A stretch of 64,000 nucleotides of DNA from Thermoplasmata archaeon (GTDB taxonomy: Archaea > Thermoplasmatota > Thermoplasmata > Lutacidiplasmatales > UBA184). The notes below the pieces were generated by a model. That model saw only the letters and a program-made list of their open reading frames with translations, searched no databases and had not been told where the DNA came from. Position 1 is the first letter of the stretch. Each line of letters begins with the position of its first letter. The stretch lies in NCBI GenBank assembly GCA_033854115.1, contig JAWOKS010000027.1, positions 17,290-81,289 of the forward strand. The letters run 5' to 3'. The position numbers and the translations under genes are program-made. Positions 1,883 to 19,201 of the stretch are shown here, in pieces.

Positions 1883-2589
1883 GCGGGGGCCTGACGTACT
1901 ACTACTCGACCGTCGCACCTCGCCCCCGGTTCGGAGGGTTCTCCACGTCGCGCCAGGAACTCCTCCAGATCGGCCTCGCGTACGTCGTGCTCACGGTCTG
2001 CTTGACGATCATCCTCTCCCAGCACACGATCCTCTTCGGCGGGGCCCAGGCGGAGAGCCTCTCGACGATCTCCCCCTTGCTCGTCGGGATCTCCGCGATC
2101 GCCGCGTTGAGCGGCTTCGTCGCGCACGAGCTCGCCCACAAGTTCGTCGCCCAACGGCGGGGCTTCTGGGCCGAGTTCCGCATGTGGCCGGTCGGCCTCG
2201 TCCTCGCGCTCGTGAGCTCGGTCGTCGGCATCCTCTGGGGCGCGCCCGGCGCCACGATGGTGGGGGGGATGAGCGACGACGACCGCGCCGACTGGGGGCG
2301 CACGAGCGTCGCCGGTCCGCTCACGAACGTCGCGTTCGCCGGGGTCTTCTACGGCGCGGCGATGCTCCTCTTCCGCGCCGGCTCCGACCTCTTCGGCTGG
2401 ATGCTCCTGCTCGCGTGGATCAACGGCTGGTTCGGTACGTTCAACCTTCTCCCGCTCGGCCCCCTCGACGGACGCAAGGTCCTGCGCTGGAGCGTCGGGG
2501 TCTGGATCGCAGCGATCGCGCTCACCGGCGCGATGGCCGTCCTGAGCTACATCGCCTATGCGTACCAGACCCCCTTCCTGAACTTCTGA
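1879..2589 (+). CDS. M50 family (site-2 protease type) membrane metalloprotease
   Basis: HExxH motif HELAHKFVAQRRG inside a TM helix, plus the downstream NLLPLGPLDGRKV motif characteristic of peptidase M50. Multiple TM segments. GTG start overlaps the upstream stop (GTGA). Confidence 0.7.
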   Translation: MSGGLTYYYSTVAPRPRFGGFSTSRQELLQIGLAYVVLTVCLTIILSQHTILFGGAQAESLSTISPLLVGISAIAALSGFVAHELAHKFVAQRRGFWAEFRMWPVGLVLALVSSVVGILWGAPGATMVGGMSDDDRADWGRTSVAGPLTNVAFAGVFYGAAMLLFRAGSDLFGWMLLLAWINGWFGTFNLLPLGPLDGRKVLRWSVGVWIAAIALTGAMAVLSYIAYAYQTPFLNF

Positions 2590-2601
2590 GGGAGCACCGT
2601 C

Positions 2602-3537: not shown

Positions 3538-4790
3538 CCGACGTCGACCCGCGGTCGCGGGCGGTGGCAGCGGGGACCCTCATGTTCGCCCGCACGGTCT
3601 ACGCGTTCAACTGGTACAACATCGGCGGGGTCCTGCCGCTCATCGGGACCCGGTTCGGGATCGGGACGGTCGAGTTCGGGATCCTCCTGGTCGCGTTCCT
3701 CGTGGGGGCCGCGATCTTCCAGATACCGGCAGGCTTCGCCGCGATGCGCTGGGGGAGCCGGGCGACCTCGGTCGCGGCGCTCGCCGTGATGGCCGCCTGC
3801 GCGTGCGCGTCGGCGGTCTCGCCGAACTGGATCGTGCTCGCCGCCTTCCGGTTCGGCACCGGGGCGGGGGCCGCGTTCTTCTTCGCCCCCGCGCTCGGGC
3901 TCGTGACCGCTTACTTCCCGAGCGGCCAGCGCGGGGTCGTCATCGGCGCCTACAACGCCGGGTTCAGCCTCGGATCCGGGGTCGGCGTCATCGTGAGCGC
4001 CGTGCTCGGCGAGCTCTACGGGTGGGCCGTCCCGCTCGCGCTCGGCGGCGCGCTCCTCGTGATCGCGACCGGCCTCGCGTGGGTCCTCCTGCCTCGCCCC
4101 TCGACCGAAGGCATGGGGCGGAACTTCGGGGAGGTGGCGCGCGCGGCCCGTCCGGTCCTCCGCTCGCGGACCCTCTGGGCGGTCGGGCTCGCGGGGATCG
4201 GTCTCTGGGGAGGGTTCTACATCGCGGCGCAGTACTTCGTCGCGTTCGCGCGCGACGTGCATCCGACCTGGAGCCTCGCTCTCGCTGCGGCCGCCCCGAC
4301 CTTGATGATCTTCCTCGAGATCCCCGGGGCGCCGATCGGAGGATGGTTCGGGGAGCGGGCACGGGACATGCGACGCACGCTCGCGCTCTGGGGCCTCGCG
4401 AGCGGAGCGCTGCTCGCGGCCGTACCGTTCCTGCCGTTCGACCTCATCGTACCGGCGTTCGTCCTGCTCGGGTTCGCCTGCGGGCTCACCTTCGCGCTCC
4501 TCTACCTGCTCCCGACGTACCTTCCCGAGGTCCGGGGGGATGCGATGGCGCTCGGTCTCGCCCTCGTGAACTCGGTCCAGATCTTCGGGGGCAGTGCGAT
4601 GGCGATCGCCTTCGCGGTCCTTGCGGCCGGCGTGGGCTACGAGGGAGCCTGGATCTTCGCGGGCGTGGCTACCGCCGCGTTCCTGCCCGCCCTCGCCCTC
4701 GCGTCGGCCCCGGGGCGTTCGCGCGGTGCGAGGGCCGGGGACGAGGGTGCTCCGACCCCCCCGGCCCTTCCGTCAGGTCGACTAGGGTGA
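3534..4790 (+). CDS. MFS transporter
   Basis: About 12 predicted TM helices and an MFS-like loop after TM2. GTG start at 3534 overlaps the stop of the upstream gene; an alternative ATG lies at about 3582. Confidence 0.7.
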   Translation: MTDVDPRSRAVAAGTLMFARTVYAFNWYNIGGVLPLIGTRFGIGTVEFGILLVAFLVGAAIFQIPAGFAAMRWGSRATSVAALAVMAACACASAVSPNWIVLAAFRFGTGAGAAFFFAPALGLVTAYFPSGQRGVVIGAYNAGFSLGSGVGVIVSAVLGELYGWAVPLALGGALLVIATGLAWVLLPRPSTEGMGRNFGEVARAARPVLRSRTLWAVGLAGIGLWGGFYIAAQYFVAFARDVHPTWSLALAAAAPTLMIFLEIPGAPIGGWFGERARDMRRTLALWGLASGALLAAVPFLPFDLIVPAFVLLGFACGLTFALLYLLPTYLPEVRGDAMALGLALVNSVQIFGGSAMAIAFAVLAAGVGYEGAWIFAGVATAAFLPALALASAPGRSRGARAGDEGAPTPPALPSGRLG

Positions 4791-6183
4791 GCAGGTTCGT
4801 CGGACGGCCCTCGACCGGGTAGCCGGCGGTCAACACCGCCACCCCTCCCTTCGGGAACCCGAGCTCGCGCGCGAGCTCCCGCGTCGCCACGCTGAGGTGC
4901 TGCAGCTGGCTGTGCGGGAGCGCCGGTCGGCCCAGGACCCCGCTCACGAGGCGAAGCTGGCGGCGCACGTGGGGGGAGCTCGACATCGCCACCACGGGGC
5001 AGTTCGGCCGGAGGGCGGCGACGAGACGGGCGGTCCGTCCCGAATGGGTAGGCGTCGCGATCACTCGGGCCTCGACCGCTTCCGCGAGGGTGACGGCGGC
5101 GCGCGCCACCGCGCGGTCCGGCTCGGTGCCGGCGAGGCGGGCGCGCGCTTCCCGGAGCGCGCGCGGGTCGAAGGCGGGCTCGGTCGCCTCGGCGATGCGG
5201 GCGAGCCACCTCACCGATTCGAAGGGGTACTCCCCGATCGCGGTCTCGTCGCTCAGCATCAGAACGTCCGCGCCGTCGAGCACCGCGTTGGCCACGTCCG
5301 TGGCCTCCGCCCGCGTGGGTCGCGAGGAGGTGAGCATGCTGAGCAGCATCTGCGTCGCCACGATCGCGAACTTCCCTGCGAGGTTGGCCTCGAGCACGAG
5401 GCGCTTCTGCTCGAGCGCGAGCTTCTCGAGCGGCAGGCTGAGGCCGAGGTCGCCCCGCGCCACCATGATGCCGTCGGACGCTGCGAGGATGCCGTCGATC
5501 GCCTCGAGCGCCTCGGGTCGCTCGATCTTGGCGATCACGCCGACCGGCCTCGAGGGGGCCACGTCCCCGAGCCAGCGTCGGACCTCGAGGACGTCCCGGG
5601 CCGAGCGTACGAACGAGAGCGCGAGGAAGTCCACGCCCTCGGTCACCGCCTCGAGGGCCGCCGTGCGGTCGCTCTTCGCGAACCAGGAGCCCCGGAACCG
5701 CGCGTGCGGGAGGTGAACGCCCGAGTGGGACGCGACGAGACCCCCGTGCACGACCGTGGTGTCCACACCGCCCGAGGCCACCCGATGGACCCGGAGCTCG
5801 ACACGTCCATCTCCGAGAAGGACCACATCCCCGGGGCGGCTGCCGACCCAGAACCTCGGAAGCTCGACCCCGACCCGGCGACCGTCGCCCGGGGCGGGCT
5901 CGGAGTCAAGGCGCCAGGGTCGGCCGGGGACGAGGCGGAGGGGGGACGTGGCGAGCTCCCCGAGGCGGAGCTTGGGTCCCGGCACGTCCGCGACGATCGC
6001 GAGCTCGGTGTGCTCCTCGCGCGTAACGGAACGGATCCGCTCGAGCACGGTCCGGTGCGTGGCGGTCGTTCCGTGGGAAAGGTTGAGGCGGAACGCGTCG
6101 ACCCCCGCTCGGACGAGCTCTCGAATCCCTTCCTTCGAGTCGCACGCGGGGCCCACCGTGGCGAGGATCCGGGTTCGACGCAC
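4669..6183 (-). CDS. pyk: pyruvate kinase
   Basis: N-terminus MRRTRILATVGPACDSKEGIRELVRAGVDAFRLNLSHG is the canonical PK signature. A C-terminal regulatory domain is present. About 35 aa of low-complexity 3' extension overlaps the convergent MFS gene. Confidence 0.85.
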   Translation of the reverse strand: MRRTRILATVGPACDSKEGIRELVRAGVDAFRLNLSHGTTATHRTVLERIRSVTREEHTELAIVADVPGPKLRLGELATSPLRLVPGRPWRLDSEPAPGDGRRVGVELPRFWVGSRPGDVVLLGDGRVELRVHRVASGGVDTTVVHGGLVASHSGVHLPHARFRGSWFAKSDRTAALEAVTEGVDFLALSFVRSARDVLEVRRWLGDVAPSRPVGVIAKIERPEALEAIDGILAASDGIMVARGDLGLSLPLEKLALEQKRLVLEANLAGKFAIVATQMLLSMLTSSRPTRAEATDVANAVLDGADVLMLSDETAIGEYPFESVRWLARIAEATEPAFDPRALREARARLAGTEPDRAVARAAVTLAEAVEARVIATPTHSGRTARLVAALRPNCPVVAMSSSPHVRRQLRLVSGVLGRPALPHSQLQHLSVATRELARELGFPKGGVAVLTAGYPVEGRPTNLLTLVDLTEGPGGSEHPRPRPSHRANAPGPTRGRGRAGTRR

Positions 6184-6258
6184 GGAGGTCGAGCGAGCCG
6201 GGACACTTAGCGGTGGGGGAGCCTGTGAGTTCTTGTACCGGGCCCCGTTGTTCAGCCC

Positions 6259-6331
6259 AGCCCCGTGGTGTAGTGGCCAAGCATGCTGGCCTTTGGAGCC
6301 GGCGACAGCGGTTCGAATCCGCTCGGGGCTA
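6259..6331 (+). tRNA. tRNA-Gln (anticodon UUG), archaeal type, no encoded CCA
   Basis: Manual cloverleaf: acceptor AGCCCCG/CGGGGCT (7 bp); D-arm GTGT..GCAT; anticodon stem CTGGC/GCCGG with loop CUUUGGA (anticodon UUG); T-arm AGCGG-TTCGAAT-CCGCT; discriminator A. Followed by AAT rather than CCA. Confidence 0.85.
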
Positions 6332-6343
6332 AATTAAAGTAAT

Positions 6344-6586
6344 GTGCATGTCGTGGGCCTCACGATGCCTGCCGATCGGATGACTTCCATCTCCGTTCAT
6401 GCCTCCACCCTGAGGATGCTGAAACCGTTCAAGAAGGGCGACATGACGTGGGACGACGTGCTGATCGACTTCATCGAGGAACATATCCCCAAAGAGTTCG
6501 TACGGGCGATGGTCGCGGCCGCAGAGAAAGGGCCCGGGATCCCTTTCGACGAGGTGTACGAGGAGCACGTTCGCCGGAGGCACTAG
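6344..6586 (+). CDS. putative type II antitoxin (small archaeal VapB/RHH-like antitoxin family)
   Basis: 80-aa protein. The pattern TSISVHASTLRMLKPFKKGDMTWDDVLIDFIEE matches the archaeal small antitoxin consensus (TISV..E...RLK..K..ESY.DVI..LL). It sits immediately upstream of a RelE/ParE-like toxin, with a 3-nt gap. Confidence 0.5.
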   Translation: MHVVGLTMPADRMTSISVHASTLRMLKPFKKGDMTWDDVLIDFIEEHIPKEFVRAMVAAAEKGPGIPFDEVYEEHVRRRH

Positions 6587-6589
6587 AGC

Positions 6590-6874
6590 GTGCCCACCGC
6601 CGAAATGACGCACGAGGCGCGACGCCAGTTTCTGTCTCTGCCGGCTGAGGTTGCGGATCGTTTCAAAGAGCTCGCCGATCACCTCAAGACAAGTCCCCTC
6701 CGGCTTGCGCCCTGGTTTGACGTCAAGGCGACTGGTCGGGAACGAGGAAGTGAGGTCTTTCGGGCCAGAGTGGGGGAGTATCGTGCGACGTACGTCTTCG
6801 ACGGCGAGATCGTTCGCTTCACCCGGTTCCGTTTGCGCAAGGACATCGGGTACGCAGCCTTGCCGAAGTCGTAG
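6590..6874 (+). CDS. RelE/ParE family type II toxin
   Basis: 94 aa. C-terminal RVGEYRATYVFDGEIVRFTRFRLRKDIGY matches the RelE/ParE core (RVGDYR.IY..d...i.il.IgHRkd.Y). GTG start 3 nt after the antitoxin stop. Confidence 0.6.
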   Translation: MPTAEMTHEARRQFLSLPAEVADRFKELADHLKTSPLRLAPWFDVKATGRERGSEVFRARVGEYRATYVFDGEIVRFTRFRLRKDIGYAALPKS

Positions 6875-6983
6875 GATACGACAGCTCTCCTGGCTCCGCC
6901 CGGGTGAGTTCTCCAAGTGATCCGAACCGTGGCACGGACCGGGGGGAGCAACGGGCGGGTTCTACTCGGGGTCGAACAGACCG

Positions 6984-7946
6984 TCAAGGGGCGACCGGAG
7001 TACCAGGCGATGCACCGCTTTCCGCGAACCGTTGAAGTGTTTCGCGGGCCCTACATCTGAGCTCGGGTCGCGGCAGGGCGGCAAGAGCTCGAAGGGGCAG
7101 CACGCGGGCCCAGTCGCGGACCATCTCCGAGCCCAGGCAATAGCCGGTCTCGATGTGGCCGCCGATGTTGTACCAGGAGCCGAAGTACGGACGGAGCGAC
7201 TTTCTCGCGGTCACGTCCTTCAGGAACTTCCTCGCAAGCCAAGCGCGCTTCCGCTCACACCAAGAGAGCCAGTCACGCCTCCCCGTACGCAACGCGAACA
7301 ACCGGGGCTCTAGCTTCCTTTCACAGTAGGTGGCAAACCCCTCCTCGTAGAGCTTCCACCAGGGGTCGGAGCGGTCCTCCCACCGTTCCCCGCGCCACTC
7401 CTGATGCGTGAGGTGGGCTACCTCGTGAGCGACTATCCGGCGAGACCACCCATCCCCACCCCGGTGGTTTTCGGCGGCATTCTCCAGCCCGAAGAGGCAC
7501 GCCGGGCGTCCTTCGTAAGAGGTGGCCCAGCCTGCGCCGCAACTGATCCCCACGTAGATCACGAAACTGACCGGGAACTGGAGGTCCAGGACCCTCCGGG
7601 CACGCGCCCAACTGCGCGGGAGGGACTTGAGAAGGTCACGATGGAGCTGCCTCATCCGACCAAGACGGCTCGGCAAGCGATGGAATACATGGTGTCGTGC
7701 GACCCTTTTCCAGTCCACGCCGTCGCGGATGTAGCTCTCCTTCTGCTTCGCGAGAAGCTCAGGGCAAGGTCGCATGTACTCCACTTCCCAGCGCGCGACT
7801 TGGCGGGCAGGGGGGTCGATGCGCGCGCTCTGCCAGAAACTCTCGAAAGCGGGGAAGGCATCCACGATGTTCGGACCCGCCGTCGCACGAGTGGGTGTCA
7901 CGGGCTCTGACCCCGGTTCGGGTTCCCGCATGACCTGCCCGCCCAA
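6984..7946 (-). CDS. putative Zn-dependent metallopeptidase (HExxH; DUF2268-like)
   Basis: IVAHEVAHLTHQEW zinc-binding motif. Composition is Trp/Arg-rich and the local GC is lower than the flanking genome. Confidence 0.45.
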   Translation of the reverse strand: MGGQVMREPEPGSEPVTPTRATAGPNIVDAFPAFESFWQSARIDPPARQVARWEVEYMRPCPELLAKQKESYIRDGVDWKRVARHHVFHRLPSRLGRMRQLHRDLLKSLPRSWARARRVLDLQFPVSFVIYVGISCGAGWATSYEGRPACLFGLENAAENHRGGDGWSRRIVAHEVAHLTHQEWRGERWEDRSDPWWKLYEEGFATYCERKLEPRLFALRTGRRDWLSWCERKRAWLARKFLKDVTARKSLRPYFGSWYNIGGHIETGYCLGSEMVRDWARVLPLRALAALPRPELRCRARETLQRFAESGASPGTPVAP

Positions 7947-8769
7947 GAGTCCGCTCCCGGCCGGAGCCAGGGGGTTGACTGTGAGTATACCGTGGTTTCA
8001 CGCCTCAGGCCCTGCGGGGCTAGCGACGACTGCTTCCTCACGCTCGGGACGGGGTAGCCGCCCACGCCGGAGCTCTTCATCGCGAGCGATTTGGCCTGCG
8101 CGCTGGGGACCGTCGGGGGCCCGCTCTTCCCCCACGCCTTCGCCGCGGGTCTCGTGGCGGCCGCGTTCCTGGCACTCGTGGTGATCTCGCTCAGCAGTGC
8201 GTAGGGGTTCCCGGAGGCGATGGGCATCCCGCGAGACCGAGCGTTCTGGTGCTACTCCCTCGAGAGCGCCCCGCCCGTCGTCGTGTCGCTGCTGCTTTCC
8301 CATCCCCTTGCGCTCGTGCTGGACCTGTTGGCAGCCCTCGTCTTCGTCCTCATCGGGCCGGCTGTCGTCGTGGGGCTGCTGGCCGTGGATCCGCGGGTGA
8401 TGCACGAGCATGCATCCACCGTGCCTTGGAGGCTCGCCCATCGGACCGGTCTCGCTTCGGTGATCGCCTACGGGGTTGTCGCCCTCGCCTAGGTCGCCGG
8501 AGGCGAACCACGCAACCCTCGCGGGGTCGGTTCGACGGGCCGCGCGCGGCGGGCCCTGCTTCCGGCTGCAATCTCGGGGGCCAAGCCCTCGCGACGTCAG
8601 GGGTGTTCGGCCAAGTGAAAGGCCGCCCGTCCCTTCTTTCCCGCGCACGAGCTTATCTATCTGGAACCGACTCGCGGCTCGTGGGACGCGTCGACGCTGC
8701 CGCGAAGGCGAGGGCCCGGTCGCGCCGGGGCCGCGCCGATCGGAGGTCCCCTCCCGAGCGGGGTCCGCT

Positions 8770-10026
8770 GTGGTAGGGCTCGACTCCGGGGACATTGCGT
8801 GGGTCATCACGGCGACCGCGCTCGTCATGGTCATGACCCCCGCCTTGGGGTTCTTTTACGGCGGGCTGGTCCGTCAGAAGAACCTCGTTGCGACGATCGT
8901 GCAATGCCTGATGATCTTCTCCGTCGTGAGCATTGTCTGGGCCCTCTGGGGCTACACGCTCACCTTTGGCCCGGCAGTGGGTGGCCTCATCGGCAACCTC
9001 TCGAAGATTGGACTGTTGCACGTCGGTGAGGCGGCGAACACGGCGTACTCGAGCTCCATCCCGGAGCTGCTGTTCTTCGCGTTTCAGCTGAAGTTCGCCG
9101 CGATCACTCCGGCCCTCATCATCGGAGCCTTCGCCGGTCGGGCGCGGATGAAGGGCCTACTCCTGTTCATCGTGCTCTGGACGACGCTCATCTACGTCCC
9201 GATCGCGATGTGGATCTGGAACCCCGGCGGTTGGCTCCGCGACCTCGGTGTAGTCGATTTCGCGGGGGGCCTAGTGGTCCACACTTCTGCGGGAGTCTCG
9301 GCTGTCGCCGCCGCCCTCGTGCTGGGACAGGGTAAGGACTTCGGCAGGGAAGCTCGCCCCAACAACGTCCCCTACGTCATTCTCGGGACCGCGATTCTTT
9401 GGTTCGGCTGGTTCGGCTTCAACGCCGGGAGCGCGCTCGCTGCGAACGGGCTCGCCGTGAACGCCCTCGTGGACACCAACCTTGCGGCGGCCGCCTCGGG
9501 TGTGAGCTGGATGCTGGTCGACTGGGTGCGCAAGGGCCACCCGACGGCGGTCGGAATGGCCGTGGGCGCGGTTTGCGGTCTCGCGGCGGTTACCCCTGCG
9601 GCGGGATATGTTTCTCCCTCGGCGTCAATCCTCATCGGACTCGCGGCCGGATTGCTCTGCAATTTCGTCGCGGGTTGGCGGGCCCGGTCGACGCTGGACG
9701 ATTCGTTGGACGTGTTCGCCTGCCACGGCGCGGGGGGCATGTGGGGAACCATCGCAACCGGCCTGTTCGCCTCCGTGGCGGTCAATACGGCCGGCCCGAA
9801 CGGTCTCCTGTTCGGTAACCCCCACCAGCTGCTCGTCCAGCTCTTCGGAGTGGGTGTGGTCGCGTCGTTCGCGTTCGTCGGCTCGTATCTCCTGCTCCGG
9901 GCGATCACCCTCATCACGCCCCTGCGCGTCGCCCCTGCGGCGGAGGACGCCGGCCTCGACCTCGCCGAGTTCGGTGAGGAAGCCTACGACCCGTCACGCG
10001 GCCCGAGCGCTACTGGACCGCCCTAG
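8770..10026 (+). CDS. amt: ammonium transporter (Amt/MEP family)
   Basis: DIAWVITATALVMVMTPALGFFYGGLVRQKN is the Amt signature. 11 TM helices. A conserved twin-His region is visible (VVHTSAGVSAVAAALVLG...FACHGAGGMWGT). GTG start at 8770. Confidence 0.85.
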   Translation: MVGLDSGDIAWVITATALVMVMTPALGFFYGGLVRQKNLVATIVQCLMIFSVVSIVWALWGYTLTFGPAVGGLIGNLSKIGLLHVGEAANTAYSSSIPELLFFAFQLKFAAITPALIIGAFAGRARMKGLLLFIVLWTTLIYVPIAMWIWNPGGWLRDLGVVDFAGGLVVHTSAGVSAVAAALVLGQGKDFGREARPNNVPYVILGTAILWFGWFGFNAGSALAANGLAVNALVDTNLAAAASGVSWMLVDWVRKGHPTAVGMAVGAVCGLAAVTPAAGYVSPSASILIGLAAGLLCNFVAGWRARSTLDDSLDVFACHGAGGMWGTIATGLFASVAVNTAGPNGLLFGNPHQLLVQLFGVGVVASFAFVGSYLLLRAITLITPLRVAPAAEDAGLDLAEFGEEAYDPSRGPSATGPP

Positions 10027-11062
10027 GAGAGCGAGCCCGATGCCGCGCGGCTGCGATCCGCGGTTCGGGCGGGACTCACTTTCCGACCCGAAGCAACCGC
10101 CCGACGTAGACCGCGCTGGGTCCGAGACTACCGTTCGGCGCCGTAGGACGGCGGGACCTGCTCAGGACGGGCGGTCCGGCGCGTCCCGGCCACGAGAGTC
10201 AGGCAACCGTACCGCACCACTGAGGTGGCCTGTAGCCCCGTCGTGAGCGCAAACTACGGCACCAGAGATGACCAGAAGTTCAACACCGGGAGCAGCCTGG
10301 GCAAGTCCAACCCTTGGAGGCTCGCCAGGAGGCTATGTCGTGGGTTGCAGGGGAGTTCCGTGGGCGAGCATCCCCCAGTGGTTCAAACTTGTGCGAAAGG
10401 GGTTCCTATTCCATGGTGTTGACAAGTGACGCGCTGTACCGTCCGGTCCATCACGACCGAGTCAGCTCCGCCTCTTGCTTGCAGTCGAGAAGGATCAGCT
10501 GACAGGCCCCACACCGCCAGCCGCCGTAGTTGTGCACTCCGATCGAGTGGGGACGGATGGGTAGCATGTCCCCTCTGAGCCACAATCGCTCTTTCTGAGA
10601 ACTGAAGCTGATCCGGGCGTTTGTTCCTACGAACCCGCTCTCCATCGGACTCCTGCACCGTGGGCAACGAGGCGCAGAAGGGAGCGCCGTCGATCTCGCC
10701 GACGGCGCCAGGATACTTGAGGTTCGAGGGCAGGGCCGCTCGACCCTGGCGTCCTCGCACGCGGGGCACGGGGTCGTAGCGCTCCTCCGCCACGGGCGAG
10801 CCTCATGTCGAGAAGAACCTGACCCTTGGGCGCATCACGGTGCCGACCGTTCACTCCTGCCGTGGAGCTCGTGGTCGCGGGGGTTTGAGATGAGCGCCAG
10901 GGCTCATCGCCTCCGGGCCGCCCTGCCGGCGCGAACCCCCACGGGAAGCCAATATAGGATGGGGTCCCGGACGGGGGAGCGCCCCGCGCCGAGGCACGCG
11001 GTCTCTCGATGCGGCGTCCTCCCGGTCGAGGGGGTTAATCTATCCGGGGACGATTCCGGCGC

Positions 11063-13078
11063 GTGGGTGCTCCCCGCCGTCTCGCCGCGATCATGTTCAC
11101 CGACATGGTCGGCTCCACCGCCCTCGGGCAGGTTGACGAGGCGGCTTCTTTGGCCCTGACCGAGGAGATGCGAACTCGCTTGCGGCCGCTCTTCCGGGAC
11201 CACCGCGGGCGTGTGATCAAGACGATGGGGGATGGCTTCCTGATCGAATTCCTGAGCGCCCTCGAGGCCGTGACCTGTGGGCTCGAGATCCAGCGGTCGA
11301 TCCTGGAACGCAATGTCTCGATCCGTCAGGGTCCGCGACTTCTGGTGAGGATCGGCATCCACCTCGGAGACGTGGTGGAGGTGGACGGAGACATTTCCGG
11401 AGATGCGGTGAACATCGCCTCGCGCATCGAGCCCCTCGCGGAGCCGGGCGGGCTCTGCGTCACCGAGCAGGTGTACGCCCAGGTCCGACACAAGGTCAGC
11501 CCCCCGTTCCAGAAGCTCCCGCCGCGCCCTCTCAAAGGGGTCCAGGACCCGATCGATGTCTACGGGCTGGTGCCGACCGAGCGGCCGGACGAGGCGCCCT
11601 CCGGGCGACCCTCCCCGCCGCGTATCGCCGTGCTGCCCCTCGCGAACATCAGCCCGGACCCGAGCGACGAGTACTTCGCGGACGGTCTGACCGAGGAGCT
11701 CATCACCGTGCTCTCCCAGATCCGCGGCCTAAGGGTGATCGCCCGGACGTCGGTCGCGCAGTACAAGGGGTCGACCCGGTCCATCCCGCAGATCGGCCGG
11801 GAGTTGGGCGTGGACTCGATCCTCGAGGGGAGCGTCCGCAAGGCCGGTGACCAGCTCCGGATCACCCTGCAGATGATCGAGGTCGCGACGGAGGAGCACC
11901 GTTGGGCCCACACGTACGACCGGCGCCTGGAGAACATCTTCGCCGTCCAGCGGGAGATCGCCGAGCGCACGGCCGAGACCCTGCGGATCGAGCTCCTTTC
12001 GGCGGAGCGGGACGCTCTGGTGCAGAGGCCGACGACGAGTTCCGCCGCTTACAGCCTCTACCTGAGGGGCCTCCACGCCCTGCGCGCGACCGCCTCGCTG
12101 GACGACGCGGGCGCGGTCTCCTACTTCGAGGCGGCCCTCCGCGAGGACCCGCGCTTTTCCCCGCCGTACTCCGTCCTCGCGAACGTGCTCATCGGCGCGT
12201 CCGGGGAGACGCGACCGAGCCGGGAGGTCCTTCCTCGGGCCCGGGAACTGGTGAACCGCGCGCTCGAGCTGGACCCGGAGTCGTCCGATGCGCACTGCGC
12301 ACGGGGAAACCTCGCGATGCAGGACACCCACGACTGGGAGCTGGCCGAGCAGGAATTCCTGCGGGCGATCGGGCTGAACCCCAGCAGCTCCACGGCCCGC
12401 TTCTGGTTCGGCGTCCTCCTGTTGACCCTGCAACGGACCGTCGAGGCCGAAACGCAGCTCCGCCTCGCGATCGAGCTGGACCCCTTGATCACGGCCCCCA
12501 AGATGGTCCTCGTGCGGGTGTTCATGGCCGACGGGAAGTTCGATCGGGCCCTGGACCTGCTGCGCGCGATCCTCCGCAGCTCGCCGGAGCGCGCGGACCT
12601 CTACAGCGTCTGGACCGGATGGTGCCTTTTCTTGGACGGCCGCCCGGAGGAGGCGCGGCGGGAGGCCGACGCGTGGTTGCCGAAGCAGGACCGCCCGGGA
12701 CACCCGGGGCCGGCACTTCTCCAGGCCGCCCTGGGGAACCCCGCTCCCGCCCGCGCGTGGCTTTCCGCCCTGGAGGGAGGCTCCGCCCCCGGGTTCCACA
12801 CCCTCTCCCATGCGGCCGCGGCCTGTGCGGTCCTCGGAGAAACGCAGAAGGCGTTGGACCTATTGGAACGCGATCTCCGCGAGGGCGAGAGGAACCTGTG
12901 GTTCGTCTACGACTTCCCGTCGTTCGATCCGCTCCGTGCCGAGCCGAGATTCCTCGCGATGCTGAGGTCGATGAACCTTCCCACCACGCCCGGCGCGCGA
13001 AGACTGTGGTCGCGCGCGGTGCCCCGCGGCGGAGCCCCTGCGCTTACCGGGGACAGGCCCTCATCCCCCGGAAGCTGA
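11063..13078 (+). CDS. adenylate/guanylate cyclase (class III CHD) domain protein with a TolB-N-like region and C-terminal TPR repeats
   Basis: RRLAAIMFTDMVGSTAL...IKTMGDGFLIEF...IGIHLGDVV are cyclase-homology-domain metal/substrate motifs. This is followed by VLPLANISPDPSDEYFADGLTEELITVLS and then TPR-like helical repeats. Confidence 0.8.
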   Translation: MGAPRRLAAIMFTDMVGSTALGQVDEAASLALTEEMRTRLRPLFRDHRGRVIKTMGDGFLIEFLSALEAVTCGLEIQRSILERNVSIRQGPRLLVRIGIHLGDVVEVDGDISGDAVNIASRIEPLAEPGGLCVTEQVYAQVRHKVSPPFQKLPPRPLKGVQDPIDVYGLVPTERPDEAPSGRPSPPRIAVLPLANISPDPSDEYFADGLTEELITVLSQIRGLRVIARTSVAQYKGSTRSIPQIGRELGVDSILEGSVRKAGDQLRITLQMIEVATEEHRWAHTYDRRLENIFAVQREIAERTAETLRIELLSAERDALVQRPTTSSAAYSLYLRGLHALRATASLDDAGAVSYFEAALREDPRFSPPYSVLANVLIGASGETRPSREVLPRARELVNRALELDPESSDAHCARGNLAMQDTHDWELAEQEFLRAIGLNPSSSTARFWFGVLLLTLQRTVEAETQLRLAIELDPLITAPKMVLVRVFMADGKFDRALDLLRAILRSSPERADLYSVWTGWCLFLDGRPEEARREADAWLPKQDRPGHPGPALLQAALGNPAPARAWLSALEGGSAPGFHTLSHAAAACAVLGETQKALDLLERDLREGERNLWFVYDFPSFDPLRAEPRFLAMLRSMNLPTTPGARRLWSRAVPRGGAPALTGDRPSSPGS

Positions 13079-15013
13079 ACGGCGGTCGGGGGACAGGTTC
13101 ATTCCCCGGACCAGGGCGACGAACCGTGGGTCCCCGCGTATCGGGTCGAAATAGGGAGTCAGATAGTTGAACCAGAGACCCCTTTCGCCCGCCCGGTCCT
13201 CGCGCTCCAGGAGCGCCAGGGCCTTCTCGCGCTCCCCGAGCACCGCGTACAGGCCGGCGATCCAAGTGCCCGCGGCGTACTCCTGGAGCCGGCCCTGCTC
13301 CCAGTCCTCGAGCACGGACCGGGCTTCGGAAGCGTCCCCCAGCCAGGCGAGCAGGAGGGCTCGCCCGAACCGGTCGTGGAACGTGGCGGGAGAAGGCAGG
13401 TTCCGGGCGATCGCCTTCGCGTCGTCGGTCCTCCCGCGGAGGTAGTAGACGATCCCCAGGTTGACCCGCGGGTAGGCGAAGGCGGGCGCGCGCCGGACGA
13501 GCTCCTCGGCGAGGGCCAGAGCCTGGTCGAGCCGTGCCGAGGCGAAGTGGGTGTACATCAGGGAGTCGAGATAGGCAAGGCGGTGGGGTTCCAGGTCGAT
13601 CGCGGCCCGGAGCTCCCGCTCCGACTCGTCGAACCGCTGGAGGGTGCGCAGCAGGAGGCCGTACCAGTATCGAGCGAACGCATCGCTCGGCTTGAGCTCG
13701 AGGGCCCGTCGGAATTCTTCCTCGGCGAGCGACCAATCCAGGTCCGCCTGCATCGCGAGGTTGCCCTTCGCGGAATGCGCGTCGGAGGAGTCGGGGTCGA
13801 GCGCGAGGGCTCGTGCCACCAGCTCCCGGGCGCGGGGAAAGACCTCCCGTCCCGGGCTCAGCGCCCCGGCGGCGCCGAGGAGCAGGTGCGCTCGGTACGA
13901 GCACGCGGCGGCGAAGTTCGGGTCCTCGCGGATCGCCTGGTCGAGCAGTTGGCCGGCTCGCTCGAAGTCGACCCTCGTGTACGTTCGATACGCGTGGATC
14001 GCCTGCAGGAACAACCCGTACGCGGCGAGGTTCTGGGTCGGTTGACGTGCGATCGCCTCCCGATCCTGGCTGCCCAGCTGGAGCTTCAGCGCCTCCGCGG
14101 TGCGCTCGGCTACCTCGCGCTGGATCGCGAAGACGTTCTCCAGGCGACGGTCGTACGATTGCGCCCACAGGTGCTCCTCCGTACTCACGTCGACCAGCTG
14201 CATGGTGATGCGGAGCTGGTCTCCGGCCTTGCGAACGCTCCCCTCCAGGACCGTGGCCACGCCGAGTTCACCCCCGATCTGCGCGATCGGCTTGCTGGTG
14301 GCCTTGTACTGGCCGACAGAGGTCCGGGCGATCACCCGCAGGCCTTGGAGCTGAGAGAGAACGCTGATCAGCTCCTCGGTGAGGCCGTCAGCGAAGTACT
14401 CGTCGGCGGGGTCGGGGCTGATGTTCGCGAGCGGCAGGACCGCGAGGCGTGGCGGACCAGGGCGAGCCGCCTCGCGGACGTCGCCGACGGTTGACCACGG
14501 CAGGACGACCCGATAGACGCTCGTCGGCTCGCGAACGCCCTTCAGCGCCCGGGCGCCGAGCGGCTCGAGCGGGTAGGAGACCTTGTTGCGGACCTGGGCG
14601 TGGACCTGCTCGGAAAGGGTCACGCCCCCCTCCTCCGCCAACGGCTGGATCCGGGACGCGACATTCACCGCGTCGCCCGAGATGTCGCCCTTCGACTCGA
14701 CCACGTCCCCGAGGTGGATCCCGACCCTCAGACGGACCGCACGCTCCGGCGGGTGCGTGAGATTGTGCTCGCGTGCCTCGCGCTGGATCTGGACCCCGCA
14801 CTCCAGCGCCTCGAGCGCGCTGGAGAATTCCACCAGGAAGCCGTCCCCCAGGGACTTGACCTCGCGACCGTGGTGTCGACGGAAGATGGGCCGGACGAGC
14901 TTGCGGTGCTCCTCTCCCACCGCGAGCGCGAGGGCCTCGTCCCTCTGAGCCAGGGCCGTCGAGCCCACCATGTCCGTGAACATTATCGCCGCAAGCCGGC
15001 GCAAACGCGGCAC
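13061..15013 (-). CDS. adenylate/guanylate cyclase domain + TPR protein, paralog of 11063..13078, convergent with it
   Basis: Same architecture and roughly 60-65% identity by eye (MPRLRRLAAIMFTDMVGSTALAQRDEALAL...). The 3' ends of the two genes overlap by 18 nt. Confidence 0.8.
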   Translation of the reverse strand: MPRLRRLAAIMFTDMVGSTALAQRDEALALAVGEEHRKLVRPIFRRHHGREVKSLGDGFLVEFSSALEALECGVQIQREAREHNLTHPPERAVRLRVGIHLGDVVESKGDISGDAVNVASRIQPLAEEGGVTLSEQVHAQVRNKVSYPLEPLGARALKGVREPTSVYRVVLPWSTVGDVREAARPGPPRLAVLPLANISPDPADEYFADGLTEELISVLSQLQGLRVIARTSVGQYKATSKPIAQIGGELGVATVLEGSVRKAGDQLRITMQLVDVSTEEHLWAQSYDRRLENVFAIQREVAERTAEALKLQLGSQDREAIARQPTQNLAAYGLFLQAIHAYRTYTRVDFERAGQLLDQAIREDPNFAAACSYRAHLLLGAAGALSPGREVFPRARELVARALALDPDSSDAHSAKGNLAMQADLDWSLAEEEFRRALELKPSDAFARYWYGLLLRTLQRFDESERELRAAIDLEPHRLAYLDSLMYTHFASARLDQALALAEELVRRAPAFAYPRVNLGIVYYLRGRTDDAKAIARNLPSPATFHDRFGRALLLAWLGDASEARSVLEDWEQGRLQEYAAGTWIAGLYAVLGEREKALALLEREDRAGERGLWFNYLTPYFDPIRGDPRFVALVRGMNLSPDRRSASGG

Positions 15014-15208
15014 GACTCCCTCAGGGAGAAGCTGGGATTAAAGGCCGTGTCCCGCTCGAACTGAGGCGATTCAGGTCGTGGCAGTGGGTGCGGCCCATGA
15101 TGCGCGCCAATGACGTCGCACGATGGTCCCTCCAGAAACTTGATGCACCGTCCTGCATCTCTTGCGACCTGAGTCGGCCCTGCGTCTCGAAGCAAGGTCG
15201 AACTGGAA

Positions 15209-15925
15209 ATGGGCCCGAATGCCCGCCTCGCTGCCACCCTCGGAACGGCAGTCCCATCGGTCGCGACCATATTCATAGCGTTGTCCATGGGATGGTGGGT
15301 AATCCACACCGACGCGAATCCCTGGACAATTGGAGGCCACGAGTACCATTTCGTCGCGACGTCCACCGACCTGCCGGGCTCGAGCTATCGCACTCAATGC
15401 TGGGTGAACAATACCTCCATGCCGGGGTTCGGATCCCTTTGCGCGGCGGGGGAAGCCCAGGGGTACCTCACTCCGTACTATTCTTCGGGGGAGGGAAGTG
15501 CGAGTCTTGCCCAACTCTACTCAAACCTGTTCTGGGTGGTGTTGCTCTCGGGCGGAGCAGGTGTGGTCGGGGTCTCGGGCGTGGTGGCGCAACCTGCGCT
15601 CGCTCGACGCGTCCCGGCGTTCCCTTTCAGTTTCTTCTGGGCCATCCTGCTCGTCGCAGGGCTCATCGCTGTGGCGACCCCCCTCGGGTTCATGGTCGCG
15701 GAGCCGGGGGCCTACACGACGATCCATCCGGCAACCGCAGTCAACTCGTTCTGGGGAAGCTGTGCTTCCACGACCGAGCCAGGGTACTGTGGACCAAACG
15801 GCACGCAGTCCTGGGGACCCGGAGCCGGCTGGTTTCTCGCCTTCCTAGGAGGGGGCCTCCTTGTGGTCTCGGGCGTTGTGGGTCGAGGAATGGCTCGGAC
15901 TGCGCATCGACCATCGAACCGATGA
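15209..15925 (+). CDS. hypothetical membrane/secreted protein
   Basis: N-terminal TM (VATIFIALSMGWWVI) and two further hydrophobic segments. It lies in a lower-GC stretch and has no recognisable family. Confidence 0.4.
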   Translation: MGPNARLAATLGTAVPSVATIFIALSMGWWVIHTDANPWTIGGHEYHFVATSTDLPGSSYRTQCWVNNTSMPGFGSLCAAGEAQGYLTPYYSSGEGSASLAQLYSNLFWVVLLSGGAGVVGVSGVVAQPALARRVPAFPFSFFWAILLVAGLIAVATPLGFMVAEPGAYTTIHPATAVNSFWGSCASTTEPGYCGPNGTQSWGPGAGWFLAFLGGGLLVVSGVVGRGMARTAHRPSNR

Positions 15926-16157
15926 GAAGGCGTCGTGGGCCGGTTCGGACCACGTAGCCCCCGGTCCACCCTGCAGGATAGGGCGCAAGGCCACGGCAGG
16001 CGGACCCACATGGTGGGCGGCGCTCCTTGAAGTGATTCGGACCTCCTCCTCGGTGGCAGGCCAGTCGTTCATCCCCCCGCCGATCGTTACGCGAGGGGGG
16101 GCCTCTTCTGGGGACCCCCTCCGGACGGAAGGATGCAAATCCGCGGTCGCCCGTGGG

Positions 16158-16412
16158 GTAACCGTGGCTGCCTCGCGGCGCCTTGAGGCGATCACGTTCA
16201 CGGACTTAGCAGATTTCACCTCAACCACGCAGACGGAAGAGCCTCGTGCGTCACGAGTTCTCGAGGACCAGGAACGACTGCTTCGCTCGATCCGAGGGTT
16301 GCATGGTGGGCGCCGAGCAGGATCGATGGGGGACGGCCGGCTAGTCGAGTTCCCGAACGCTCTCGATGCGGTGGAGTGTGCCATCGACCTCCAGCGGCAC
16401 GTTCGCGATCGC
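16158..16412 (+). pseudogene. decayed fragment of a third adenylate/guanylate cyclase domain gene
   Basis: RRLEAITFTDLADFTSTTQ...MGDGRLVEFPNALDAVECAIDLQRHVRD aligns to the N-terminal CHD of the two intact paralogs. It loses similarity after about 85 aa and has no TPR part. Confidence 0.5.
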
Positions 16413-16455
16413 AGCGCCCGAGCCGGCAAGACACGGGATTGCGGAGAATCGAACG

Positions 16456-16842
16456 TCAGGCCCGCTTCGAGACTATCTCCACAAGATTCCCGTCAGGGTC
16501 CCTGAAAGTCGCGTTGCGATTGTTGTTCCCCGTGTCGTGAGGAGGCTGTACGGCCGGCACCCCCGCGGCCTTAAGGCGATGGAACGTCGTGTCCACGTCG
16601 CCCGTCCAGAGGACCAGCGCCATGGCTGGGCTTCCTGGAAGGGCATCCACCCCATGCACACGCTTCGCCGCCTCGACCGTCCCCAGTCCCAGGGTAAACC
16701 CTCCGACCTTGAACTCCACATGGGTAGGGGTCCCGGTCTTGGGGGTTCGGAACGTCTCCCTGAGCTCGAGGAGATCCCGGTAGAACCGGATGGCGGCGTC
16801 GATGTCTCGTGTATACAGGTTGACGAGTCCATCTGCGAACAC
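16456..16842 (-). CDS. VOC family protein (glyoxalase / bleomycin-resistance fold)
   Basis: 128 aa. LVNLYTRDIDAAIRFYRDLLEL ... HVEFKV ... FRDPDGNLVEIV is the typical paired beta-alpha-beta-beta-beta VOC pattern. Confidence 0.7.
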   Translation of the reverse strand: MFADGLVNLYTRDIDAAIRFYRDLLELRETFRTPKTGTPTHVEFKVGGFTLGLGTVEAAKRVHGVDALPGSPAMALVLWTGDVDTTFHRLKAAGVPAVQPPHDTGNNNRNATFRDPDGNLVEIVSKRA

Positions 16843-16909
16843 GGTGCCCGTCAGGAGGCGAGGTTACGTATCGGTTTGGGCCGGCCCATTGGGGAACCAC
16901 GCACGCGAT

Positions 16910-17446
16910 TCACCCGCCGGCCGTGCGTCTCGTAAGGTACCTTAGGATCGCGCCGGCCGTCGCCTCGGCAGGACCCGACGCGTCTATCGTCACTCCGCAG
17001 GGAACCTCGGCGACCAACTTGTAGACCTCCTTGACCGCCTGTTCCCCCTGCTGGTTCCCTCCTTGGGGTTCCACGCCGGCAAGAGGGAGGGGCCGCGTCT
17101 TGTCCCGCTCGACGCACACCCGCAACGGTGCCGCCAAAGTGAAGACCTGCAAGCCCCCGTCGGACCGCCCTGCAAGATCGTCGAGTTGCTCCCTCCAATA
17201 GAAACACCCGTCGAAGATCACGGACTGCCCGGCTTCCAGGGATGGTTGGGCCTGATCCGCCGCGATCGCGTTGGCTCTGAGAAAGCTCCGGAGCGAGATC
17301 CTGTCATCATCCCATTCCTCGAGCTCGTGGTCCTCCAGTATCCGGTCGATTGAAATGTAGTGAGCTTCGAGCGTTCGAGCCAGAGTGATGGCGATCGTCG
17401 ACTTCCCGACACCCAGAGGCCCTCGGATTACGACCGAGTAGGTCAT
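16910..17446 (-). CDS. P-loop NTPase / small-molecule kinase-like protein (AAA_33/TmrB-like)
   Basis: Walker A VIRGPLGVGKSTIA at the N-terminus of a ~178-aa protein. The ATG at 17446 is chosen over the upstream in-frame extension. Confidence 0.55.
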   Translation of the reverse strand: MTYSVVIRGPLGVGKSTIAITLARTLEAHYISIDRILEDHELEEWDDDRISLRSFLRANAIAADQAQPSLEAGQSVIFDGCFYWREQLDDLAGRSDGGLQVFTLAAPLRVCVERDKTRPLPLAGVEPQGGNQQGEQAVKEVYKLVAEVPCGVTIDASGPAEATAGAILRYLTRRTAGG

Positions 17447-17986
17447 CCCGAGGCCGAACGGTCCGTTCGGGACTATAGCAGCTCTGGTCCTGTCGCGCGA
17501 GGAGCAACCCCACGAGCTGGCCCAAGGGGACCGGCTCACGTGTCAGTCTGATCTCGGTCAGCGTGCACCGTTTTGAGACCGATGCCCCTCGAAGTAATCC
17601 GGGGTCATCCGAGAGGGACGGCAGGACTGGGCGGGGCGTCGTTCCACGTGAGGTTCCAAGTAGAACCAGTCAGGTGAGGGAACCGTGGCCGTTTAGGTGC
17701 GAGACACCCCACAGATTCCCGTCCCGATTCACCTCCTTGGGATTTCGGGAGGCCGGGAGTGTTCCTCCGACTCGCTGCGCTGCTCGAGATCGCGACCTCC
17801 CAGATCCCTCCCTCCGAGACGTTTGCGCGGGTCAGGGCATTCGCGTTGGTGGCTGGAGCCGTCGTCTTCCCCGGGTAGGCCCCGACCCGCCGGCGCACGT
17901 GGACGGCCGACCACCAGGGGCGCGACGAGCAGCAAGGCTGAACGGGCCACACGGCCCAGGGAACACGACGACGACGCGTCGAACGT

Positions 17987-18622
17987 TCACTCCGGCACAC
18001 CGCCAAGAAGTTCACCACAATCGCGACAGTTGGTCGCTCCGGCCGCGTTCAAGGTGCCGCAACGCGGGCAAACGTCCACCGTCGAAGGGACCAGGACGAA
18101 GTGCGGCCCCTTGGGTGTCGAAACGGCCAGCAACCCCCCCGTGAGGCAGAGCGCCATTCCCACGAGGAAGCCGCCCCCGCTGGCAAGCGATGCTGCCGCG
18201 AGAATAAGGACGAGAATCCCCGTCTCGGTCCGTCGGTGGTCCCACCCAAACCGAAGGACGAGACCCAGTCCGAGGAGAATCAGCCCGAGGGTGATCCCGA
18301 GCCCCCCCAACGGCTGGAGGTTGTCCGGATGGGCCTGGCTGAGACCGATCGGGGCGGGATGGCCACTCGTCCAAGCGATTCCCTCGAGCAGGATGAGGAT
18401 GCTTCCGATCAGGATCGCGATGAACGCAGCGACGACCCGTTGGTCCGGAACTTCCACCAAATGAGTCCCGGGCTGGGGAGACCTGCCGACGGCTGCCGCA
18501 TCTGGCCCTTCATCTCTCGTCGACAAGGACCGCACCCGCGAAGCGAGACCCGGAAGGGCCGCGGCCCAAGTAAGCTTGCTCCAGATCGGGTACCTTGACC
18601 TCGCGCGCCTGCGCGAATGCAA
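17987..18622 (-). CDS. hypothetical polytopic membrane protein with a C-terminal zinc-ribbon (CPRCG...CRDCG)
   Basis: Four hydrophobic helices followed by a CxxC-x11-CxxC motif. The start position is uncertain. Confidence 0.4.
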
Positions 18623-18709
18623 GGTGCGCTACCGCTTGATCTTCGACGGGGTCGCCATCGGCGCGACGACGGATTGACGGCCGGTCGAATCACCCTGCGG
18701 GACGTGACG

Positions 18710-19201
18710 ATGAAGCCTGCCCGGCAGAAGATGCAGAAGTCCGCGACGACCACCACCGAGATAGGCCGGACGTCCGGGGGCTTCACGCCTGAGGAACGAG
18801 CTGCGATGCGGGAGCGCCCTCAGGAACTGAGAGGGGCCTCGCGTCGCGGTCCGGGCGGGGATACCGCAGACGCGGAGAGGGCCGTGCTCGCGAAGCTCGC
18901 CGAGATGCCCGGGCCGGATCGGGCCATGGGCGGAATAACCCAGGGGATCGTCCGGACCCTGGCCCCGGCGCTCTCGCCGAGGCTTTGGTACGGCATGCCC
19001 GCGTACGCCAAGGGCGGCAAGGTGGTCTGTTTCTTCCGTAGCACCTAGAGGTCCCAGGCGAGGTACGCGACGCTCGGCTCTTCGGACGAGGCGAAGCTCG
19101 ACGAACGCGCGATGTGGCCGACCTACTTCGCGCTGAAGGAGCTGACGCCGGTCGAAGAGGCAAGGACCGCTACCCTCCTGAAGAAGGCAGTCGCCGGAGG
19201 T
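18710..19201 (+). pseudogene. DUF1801 (YdhG-like) domain gene interrupted by an in-frame TAG at 19046-19048
   Basis: N-terminal half: [55 protein letters not shown]. The C-terminal half follows in the same frame after the TAG: [50 protein letters not shown]. The two halves are contiguous in the YdhG family consensus. Confidence 0.5.

Follow-up and report, generated by a model that had tools for sequence, protein, structure and literature searches.

Integrative elements that target tRNA genes were reportedly described by Reiter in 1989. The locus considered here is a tRNA-Gln gene directly followed by a predicted toxin-antitoxin (TA) pair of the RelBE type, located on a 64-kb stretch of DNA (the window; 70.7% guanine plus cytosine, GC) from the metagenome-assembled genome (MAG) of a Thermoplasmata archaeon. 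The nearest protein relatives of the window's genes are all found in MAGs assigned to Thermoplasmata or named 'Euryarchaeota archaeon'. Comparison with related loci suggests that tRNA-Gln is an integration hot spot whose tRNA-proximal position is probably occupied, in the window, by the RelBE cassette conserved in this family, that the cassette would be maintained there by selection, and that the DNA to its right has a separate history.

Integration into tRNA genes with displacement of the 3′ fragment is classical (Islander, PMC4383910; PMC9897764), and an example from the Thermococcaceae involves tRNA-Gln(TTG) with a 44-bp repeat (PMC9897764). The relatives compared with the window, designated here by L numbers, are mostly metagenome contigs, with redundancy within the sets L098/L099, L100/L101/L103/L104 and L092/L094. 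Similar to tRNA-targeted islands, their tRNA-Gln loci display a regenerated tRNA, a displaced 3′ fragment present as a direct repeat, and both empty and occupied sites. Unlike such islands, the units in the relatives' arrays measure 0.6-5 kb, are free of integrase and have a core of only 17 nt. As for the features by which Islander-type elements are recognized, the region under study lies directly 3′ of the tRNA, a distal repeat was not found in the 64 kb, and there is no integrase in the open reading frames (ORFs) at 6.3-22.5 kb.

Integrase-less units that keep both attL and attR and accrete in tandem at the 3′ end of a target gene have been described in streptococci as cis-mobilizable elements, or CIMEs (PMC5704250). 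They are known from the integrative and conjugative element (ICE) and integrative and mobilizable element (IME) systems of Firmicutes, and are regarded as decayed ICEs (PMC5704250). The tandem, integrase-less units flanked by attachment (att) sites in L086, L088 and L103 resemble CIMEs. The arrays of this lineage differ in their archaeal host, in that at least 13 units are without a trace of integration or transfer genes, and in the occurrence of the same cassette at differing array positions. The window has the tRNA-side core only, whereas both cores surround the orthologous TA unit in L086 and L088.

Integrons offer a further comparison. TA pairs account for 10.5% of annotated archaeal integron cassettes and are common in integron arrays, including those of archaea (PMC9668308). 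In superintegrons, TA cassettes have a stabilizing role. The tRNA-Gln loci share with integrons their arrays of one- to three-gene cassettes that are promoter-poor or self-promoted and enriched in TA pairs, a short site for each cassette and a fixed proximal site. However, the gene upstream of the tRNA in all loci encodes pyruvate kinase (PK) and not IntI, and the repeat is a tRNA 3′ fragment flanked by GTATCC-N19/20 or TAAGGG rather than an attC hairpin, with no consistent inverted repeats at cassette ends, no attC covariance models having been run. The main text of the study of archaeal integrons makes no mention of tRNA or of Thermoplasmata (PMC9668308). In combination, four differences set the present loci apart from the known tRNA-targeted, CIME and integron cases: the units are very small and integrase-free, their core derives from a tRNA, they occur in an archaeon, and one TA pair is joined to the core for good.

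The TA pair itself is most comparable to archaeal RelBE systems, such as aRelE-aRelB of Pyrococcus horikoshii (1WMI) and RelE3 of Methanocaldococcus jannaschii (3BPQ), which likewise consist of a RelE-fold toxin of about 90 amino acids and a small antitoxin gene directly upstream. Unlike in these systems, the toxin in the window is only 23% identical to 1wmi_A and scores under the Pfam ParE_toxin threshold, its antitoxin family has no detectable Pfam or PDB relative, and the two genes have a fixed place behind a tRNA 3′ end.

The 3′ end of tRNA-Gln as an integration site

The tRNA-Gln(UUG) gene occupies 6259..6331 on the plus strand, without an encoded CCA (ARAGORN; Rfam RF00005, archaeal form, 60.4 bits), and an Rfam scan of 5.5-11.5 kb found nothing besides it. 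Its 73 nt are identical in six of 14 relatives, the others being 95.5-98.6% identical over 73-88 aligned nt. The attachment core, CGAATCCGCTCGGGGCT (6314..6330, plus strand), consists of the last 17 nt of the tRNA and covers the T-loop, T-stem and 3′ strand of the acceptor. It is present as a single copy in the window and recurs 3′ of the tRNA in related loci as direct repeats.

A search of 320 kb of Thermoplasmata loci, some of them redundant, revealed 33 extra copies of the core with at most two substitutions, in addition to 20 genuine tRNA-Gln genes. All 33 lie in the tRNA orientation and none in the opposite one, and shuffled sequences yielded about 0.05. Tandem arrays in this orientation occur in L088 (8326-10036), L103 (9727-19040), L005 (11814 and 15312), L090 (10197 and 12086), L092 (7727), L097 (3569) and, on the reverse complement, L011 (13436). 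The inter-core segments are 0.6-5 kb in length. Among the TA pairs encoded there are this RelBE pair, five of the VapBC type and another that is RelE/ParE-like; other segments encode a pyruvate phosphate dikinase (PPDK), a methyltransferase, a CLC channel, a cyclase together with a transposase, a glyoxalase, a beta-lactamase-like protein and further proteins. No integrase is present among the Pfam-annotated genes of L005, L103, L105, L106 and L107, and in the other arrays, with genes called by script and partly scanned against Pfam, the segments contain nothing besides TA pairs or sets of one to three unrelated genes. GTATCC-N19/20 stands just before many of the distal cores, and TAAGGG before others. 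No terminal inverted repeats were found at the cassette ends.

A pair of empty and occupied sites is provided by L095 and L092, respectively. In the latter, a clean insertion of 3.3 kb lies between the tRNA and the TA pair, the core is duplicated, and the flanks of the two loci align up to the tRNA end and then again from inside the tRNA 3′ end. A similar insert of 1.7 kb separates the tRNA from the TA pair in L097. Together with the core repeats, these sites indicate that the 3′ end of tRNA-Gln is a real integration site in this lineage, a role that had been proposed for the window from the general behavior of tRNA genes and that the relatives bear out.

The relatives also show the TA pair between cores. 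Copies of the core lie distal to the pair in L005, L086, L088, L090, L100/L103, L105 and L107, and in L086 and L088 one is found 35-40 nt past the toxin stop codon, defining the TA pair as an att-flanked unit of 596-602 bp. Where TA copies are located away from a genuine tRNA (L092, L094, L096, L097 and L100/L103), the core and a TATA-like motif still stand directly before them; in L106, the core before the RelBE pair is decayed. In L103, the TA pair and its core lie in an array with neither tRNA-Gln nor PK within 10 kb upstream.

Furthermore, the position of a given cassette is not fixed. One VapBC cassette recurs in three loci, in each with its start exactly at a core: after the genuine tRNA in L009, after the second core in L005 (11814-12537), and between two cores in L088 (8326-9153). 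It thus holds the first array position in L009 and the second in L005 and L088, and its L009 and L005 versions are 79% identical in DNA over 727 nt.

In the window itself, a second copy of the core was sought by blastn-short, a mismatch search, a fuzzy regular expression and an nhmmer profile of 21 attR sites, and none was found in the 64 kb. The spacer between the convergent toxin and peptidase-like genes (6875..6983) has a best core match of 11/17, a value reached by 21% of random 109-nt windows, and is only weakly similar to the conserved post-toxin region of relatives. A recombinase domain is likewise absent from about 20 ORFs scanned at 6.3-22.5 kb. These results agree with the original prediction, made from the sequence of the window, which had seen neither an integrase nor a repeat of the tRNA 3′ end and had proposed a search for a partial one.

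Of three att candidates, two were rejected, 6958-6975 (GGGTTCTACTCGGGGTC) because it requires too many edits and 30783-30799 because it falls within a coding region; the third, the intergenic 17452-17476 (plus strand; CGAACGGTCCGTTCGGGACTATA), is at chance level (nhmmer E 0.93). After removal of a 3-nt insertion, the last of these matches the core at 15/17 positions and is followed by the letters TA; it is situated in front of an AAA_33 kinase gene, where a second low-GC patch ends.

The RelBE-type toxin-antitoxin pair

An AT-rich motif resembling a TATA box, AATTAAAGTAAT (6332..6343, plus strand), is conserved directly 3′ of the tRNA and begins 1 nt after it. The form AATTAAA(A/G)TAAT is found in 10 of 11 distinct tRNA-adjacent loci, and L090 has the variant AATTATAATAAT. 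The first 12 nt past the tRNA, with a GC content of 8%, make up this conserved motif and are not the scar of an insertion. In archaea, the TATA box usually lies about 26 nt from the transcript start. Because the distance of about 34 nt from the start of the motif to the antitoxin ATG fits this spacing, the motif may be the TATA box for a leaderless TA transcript.

The antitoxin gene most likely begins at ATG 6365 (6365..6586, plus strand; 73 amino acids) rather than at GTG 6344, since its homologues and the public gene call P0175 begin there; the original prediction had placed the gene correctly but with the earlier start. No variation is seen among relatives in residues 21-40. The antitoxin belongs to a narrow family with 43 clusters, every one of them 'hypothetical' and without a Pfam domain. 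The window protein matches PF02697 VAPB_antitox weakly (E 0.14), and a PDB profile search returned matches at chance level only. The ORF is counted as an antitoxin because it is small, ends 3 nt upstream of the toxin start, and co-occurs with the toxin wherever the available sequence spans both genes.

The toxin gene (6590..6874, plus strand; GTG start) encodes 94 amino acids. Its AlphaFold2 (AF2) model has a mean predicted local distance difference test score (pLDDT) of 81 and a low-confidence C-terminus, with one strand, two helices and four strands in that order. In a Foldseek search of the PDB, the best match was the archaeal RelE 1wmi_A, with an E-value of 8.8e-7, template modeling (TM) scores of 0.76/0.80 and a root-mean-square deviation of 2.4 A. 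All eight matches at E <= 1e-3 are RelE, YafQ or related TA toxins. The matches further include RelE3 (3bpq), RelBE2, RelBE1, a Streptococcus pneumoniae TA complex and YafQ, and ParE structures match less well. A profile of 23 toxin homologues searched against the PDB also placed 1wmi first (E 0.045). Since both the modeled fold and the profile point to archaeal RelE, the toxin is a RelE-fold member of a divergent, narrow family. In sequence searches, the toxin falls below the cutoff of PF05016 ParE_toxin (15.9 bits versus 23; E 0.019) and has no NCBIfam match, and an exact-sequence look-up returned none. The RelE-type toxin and upstream antitoxin first read from the sequence are borne out, the toxin by its fold and the PDB profile, although both small proteins are sub-threshold in Pfam. 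None of the four proteins tested had a match in PADLOC.

Among 54 close homologues of the toxin, many are named RelE by the Joint Genome Institute (JGI). In the homologue alignment, R50, R58, R60 and R65 are invariant, and R79, R81, R83, Y88 and K93 are nearly so. The block with R58 and R65 aligns with 1wmi and has the motif YRARxGxYRxxY/FRARVGEYRATY; we take the equivalent residues to be catalytic in aRelE and Escherichia coli RelE. The idea that RelE might be functionally tied to the Gln codon or its tRNA was purely speculative and was not retained.

The TA pair lies 1-2 nt 3′ of tRNA-Gln in 11 distinct loci besides the window (L005, L086, L087, L088, L090, L091, L093, L095, L098 with L099, L105 and L107); beyond the seven related loci compared at first, many more came from a metagenome scan with the toxin and exact-sequence look-ups. 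Its GC content is 55-60% in every tRNA-adjacent locus, in comparison to 67-75% in the upstream DNA. Pairwise ratios of nonsynonymous to synonymous divergence (dN/dS) are 0.01-0.18 for the antitoxin and 0.03-0.22 for the toxin, and synonymous divergence (dS) between the window and the other TA loci is 1-2.7 or saturated. Given the conserved position, the shared low GC, the low dN/dS and the saturated dS, the pair is old, conserved in place and under strong purifying selection. Its conserved position and saturated dS argue against both a recent insertion and a decaying remnant, the latter being what the original prediction had suggested. That prediction had also held that the same genes at the same position with the same composition in related genomes would speak against an insertion, which is what these 11 loci display for the TA pair, at least as regards a recent insertion.

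Overall, 12 of 18 PK-tRNA-Gln loci have the pair and six relatives lack it at an otherwise identical site, and the DNA distal to it is variable throughout. In the PK tree, every major branch includes loci with the pair, among which TA-less loci are scattered, and PK and TA identities correlate (r = 0.58). The TA pair is 96% identical among L090, L091 and L093, though their PK is only 66-70% identical, whereas L086 and L093 have 84% identity in PK and 87% in TA. This mismatch hints at exchange of the TA unit between lineages.

About 100 nt past the toxin stop, a moderately conserved non-coding stretch is seen in two subgroups of relatives (L090, L092, L095, L098 and L100), with the elements ..GCCCGGGA.CAAAGTC.. 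..CCGAACTGCTG; positions 6875-6905 of the window resemble it weakly.

Composition of the region and the gluzincin-like gene

The original prediction had described 6259-7950 as a low-GC insertion, possibly a decayed island remnant, that begins directly after tRNA-Gln and carries an antitoxin-like gene, a RelE/ParE toxin and a convergent HExxH peptidase. The tRNA, all three ORFs and the fall in GC directly after the tRNA are present as described. However, the proposed fall from about 72% to about 56% applies only to the first 200 nt or so (6300-6499, 55%), and the mean of 6332-7950 is 63.1%, in comparison to 70.7% for the window and 73.1% for 1-6258. Although 6332-7950 is among the lowest 0.3% of equal-length stretches of the window, a second patch at 16191-17809 ties with it, and it does not form a bounded domain, as lower GC and loss of synteny run far past 7950: GC averages 66.7% over 6332-19000 and then 67-70% up to about 31 kb. 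Tetranucleotide usage, normalized for composition, is ordinary in 6332-7950, with 24% of windows deviating more. At third codon positions, GC (GC3) is 0.72 in the toxin gene and 0.75 in the peptidase-like gene, while the neighbors have 0.84-0.90. The antitoxin gene has a GC of 0.36 at second positions (GC2) and a GC3 of 0.82, the latter near the host level. A low-GC patch beside a tRNA is not automatically a recent island, and the result for the window is mainly corrective.

The convergent gene (6984..7931, minus strand; protein P0055) most likely starts at ATG 7931 and encodes 315 amino acids; the ORF is open to 7946, where the start had been placed at first, and an exact-sequence look-up of the long form gave no match. 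At least 420 homologues exist, nearly all in Thermoplasmata plus a few in bacteria, and every one is unannotated. H169, E170, H173 and E197 are invariant in 41 homologues, giving an HExxH motif and a Glu 23 residues past the second His, as in the gluzincins of the MA clan (M1, M61, M4, MATCAP; Peptidase_MA_2). Unlike these, the family lacks a Pfam or NCBIfam model at threshold for any of the 41 members, and a PDB sequence profile search gave no matches. The AF2 model (pLDDT 91) has weak matches to M61, MATCAP, M1 and M4 (thermolysin), with E 0.02 and TM scores of only about 0.3. The protein would thus belong to an uncharacterized gluzincin-like family, for which the label 'Zn-peptidase-like' that it had received is fair. 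In total, two unannotated protein families are flagged by the locus, the narrow antitoxin family and this widespread one.

The neighbors of the HExxH gene differ in every genome examined (L001, L108, L109/L110), and in other species it was never found beside the TA pair or the core. The arrangement of the TA pair and the peptidase-like gene is shared only by near-identical strains (L111-L113; 99.8-100%), which are short contigs found by antitoxin look-up. Because the context is different in every genome and the genes are never linked in other species, the HExxH gene is best regarded as an independent accessory gene outside the TA unit, and 6332-7950 does not hold together as the single insertion first proposed. 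In addition, the gene's GC content stays at 63.5-65% in loci of 59-69% GC, and this constancy across hosts suggests that its GC is a property of the gene family.

Competing explanations for the locus

If the window carries a RelBE cassette at the hot spot, as seems probable, 6332-6874 would be a self-contained RelBE-type type II TA operon, with a TATA-box promoter of its own through which it is joined to tRNA-Gln(UUG) at the 3′ end, and the last 17 nt of the tRNA would be the crossover core of a site-specific integration hot spot in this Thermoplasmata family. Cassettes of 0.6-5 kb, very often TA pairs, would accumulate in tandem past the tRNA, each bounded by a direct copy of the core, and would be shuffled between genomes by a recombinase that acts in trans and is not encoded in the arrays. 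The RelBE pair, always joined on its left to the core and tRNA-proximal in most genomes, would be an old resident kept by selection, most plausibly via addiction and stabilization of the locus. By analogy, the toxin is predicted to cleave ribosome-bound mRNA, and the antitoxin to neutralize it and probably to act as a repressor of the promoter. The genome of the window would have lost its distal copies of the core, with the cassette boundaries on the right erased, and the right-hand DNA (the gluzincin-like gene, a possibly disrupted membrane-protein gene, amt, cyclases and others) would have been acquired or rearranged independently. The relatives' sequences also suggest past mobility of the TA unit itself.

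Several points weigh against this explanation. The window lacks a second core, so that the status of its TA pair as a cassette rests wholly on relatives, which are mostly metagenome contigs and in several cases redundant, as listed above. No recombinase was identified and no free or circular form was seen, and viral contigs gave zero matches when scanned for the toxin, for the 3′ end of the tRNA and for a site resembling attP. Toxin and antitoxin both score under Pfam thresholds, and the antitoxin is without detectable relatives of known fold. Finally, a purely vertical, never-mobile TA operon would explain the window equally well. This last possibility is the main rival, in which the TA operon is an ancestral neighbor of tRNA-Gln, its low GC stems from the promoter and from amino acid composition, and unrelated elements break synteny. 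The low GC2 and host-like GC3 of the antitoxin gene fit such an origin, as do the conservation of position over deep branches of the PK tree, the correlated PK and TA distances, and the insertions in L092 and L097, which entered between tRNA and TA and treated the latter as chromosomal flank; the missing distal core in the window is also expected. Nevertheless, it accounts poorly for the cores distal to the pair in the relatives listed above, only 35-40 nt past the toxin in L086 and L088, for the TA pair and core of L103 far from any tRNA-Gln or PK, for the exchange suggested by 96% TA identity at 66-70% PK identity against 87% at 84%, and for the six relatives that lack the pair at the same site. 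A never-mobile operon is therefore considered unlikely, though it deserves to be kept in mind. A proposal that goes further, and is tentative and rather unlikely, is that the tRNA-Gln locus of this family is an integron-like platform for gene capture. The tRNA 3′ end would be its unchanging proximal site, RelBE the stabilizing member of the array, and a recombinase with its gene at another place in the genome would insert, excise and reshuffle the cassettes. These one- to three-gene cassettes, many of them TA pairs but others with PPDK, a methyltransferase or a CLC channel, would each end in a site of about 45 nt, made up of GTATCC-N19/20 and the 17-nt core or of TAAGGG and the core. If true, this platform would be an archaeal cassette system without IntI or attC.

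The island remnant of the original prediction, in which 6332-7950 was acquired horizontally as one low-GC piece containing the TA pair and the peptidase and then lost its integrase and att repeat, is improbable. It draws on the extreme GC of the region, its contact with the 3′ end of a tRNA that relatives show to be a true att site, the reduced GC3 of the toxin and peptidase genes, and the joint presence of PK, tRNA, TA and peptidase in near-identical strains. Against this, the TA pair occupies the same place with the same GC in the 11 other distinct loci with saturated dS, the peptidase gene is unlinked to the pair or the core in other species and keeps its GC whatever that of the host, lower GC and the loss of synteny extend well past 7950, tetranucleotide usage is not deviant, and the window has no attR. 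Moreover, no relative has tRNA-Gln directly joined, with the core at the junction, to homologues of the DNA from 7951 on. In other systems, some antitoxin-like regulators are found together with Zn-peptidases, and in the window, as in three near-identical assemblies, the peptidase gene lies beside the TA pair and converges on it, which would be compatible with a functional module of three genes, such as a protease-regulated or defence-type TA system. Such a module is very hard to credit, as the genes do not co-occur in any other species examined, PADLOC matched none of the proteins, and the convergent orientation means that they are not co-transcribed.

With the RelBE cassette at an integration hot spot as the preferred explanation, the tRNA-Gln loci would represent a sequence-defined system for the capture and retention of archaeal accessory genes and TA modules, in an uncultured, high-GC Thermoplasmata family of soil and peat in which tiny integrase-less cassettes, mostly TA pairs, pile up at tRNA-Gln and shift position. 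Handles on this system are provided by the core with its flank motifs, by sites seen both empty and occupied, and by a cassette that differs in array position between genomes.

Gene content around the cassette

Synteny with relatives was compared by tblastx with a bit-score filter, as unfiltered tblastx was uninformative in high-GC DNA. To the left, the genes for a polyprenyl synthase, a TPR protein, an unknown protein, an M50-like protein, a metallo-beta-lactamase-fold protein, an MFS protein and PK precede tRNA-Gln in this order, and all seven related loci of the first comparison share this flank in synteny, which ends at the tRNA in six of them and after the toxin in L005. To the right, the lower-GC DNA of 6332..19000 has no synteny with relatives except for the TA pair, and it appears to be lineage-specific accessory DNA, its lower GC continuing to at least 19 kb and recovering only at about 31 kb. 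The ORFs at 6.3-22.5 kb include amt, two cyclase-TPR proteins, a glyoxalase, an AAA_33 kinase, a zinc-ribbon protein and several unknowns.

Directly past the peptidase-like gene, in the frame of 7947 on the plus strand (7947-8492), membrane-protein-like sequence flanks in-frame TAG codons at about 8054 and 8201 (..VVISLSSA*GFPEAMGIP..), and this may be a disrupted membrane-protein gene. The ORF at 8220-8492 has coding-like GC values of 0.75/0.45/0.84 at the three codon positions, and 7998-8411 on the minus strand, a public gene call, does not have the look of a coding sequence. L111 (GCA_037932095.1) is 100% identical to the window over 5452-8492 and diverges totally right after the stop of this ORF (window 8492/8493; L111 3042-3164), which could represent either a strain-level breakpoint or the end of a chimeric contig.

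No glnK follows amt. The 0.8 kb or so past amt (10030-10900; 60% GC) has no convincing ORF and no Pfam or Rfam match. Paralogous adenylate/guanylate cyclase-TPR genes at 11063-13078 (plus strand) and 13061-15013 (minus strand) are convergent and overlap by 18 nt, and a cyclase with a homologous domain directly follows the toxin in L005 (8378-9646). The most deviant tetranucleotide usage of the entire window is found at about 47400-48600, within a long ORF on the minus strand (46569-49925).

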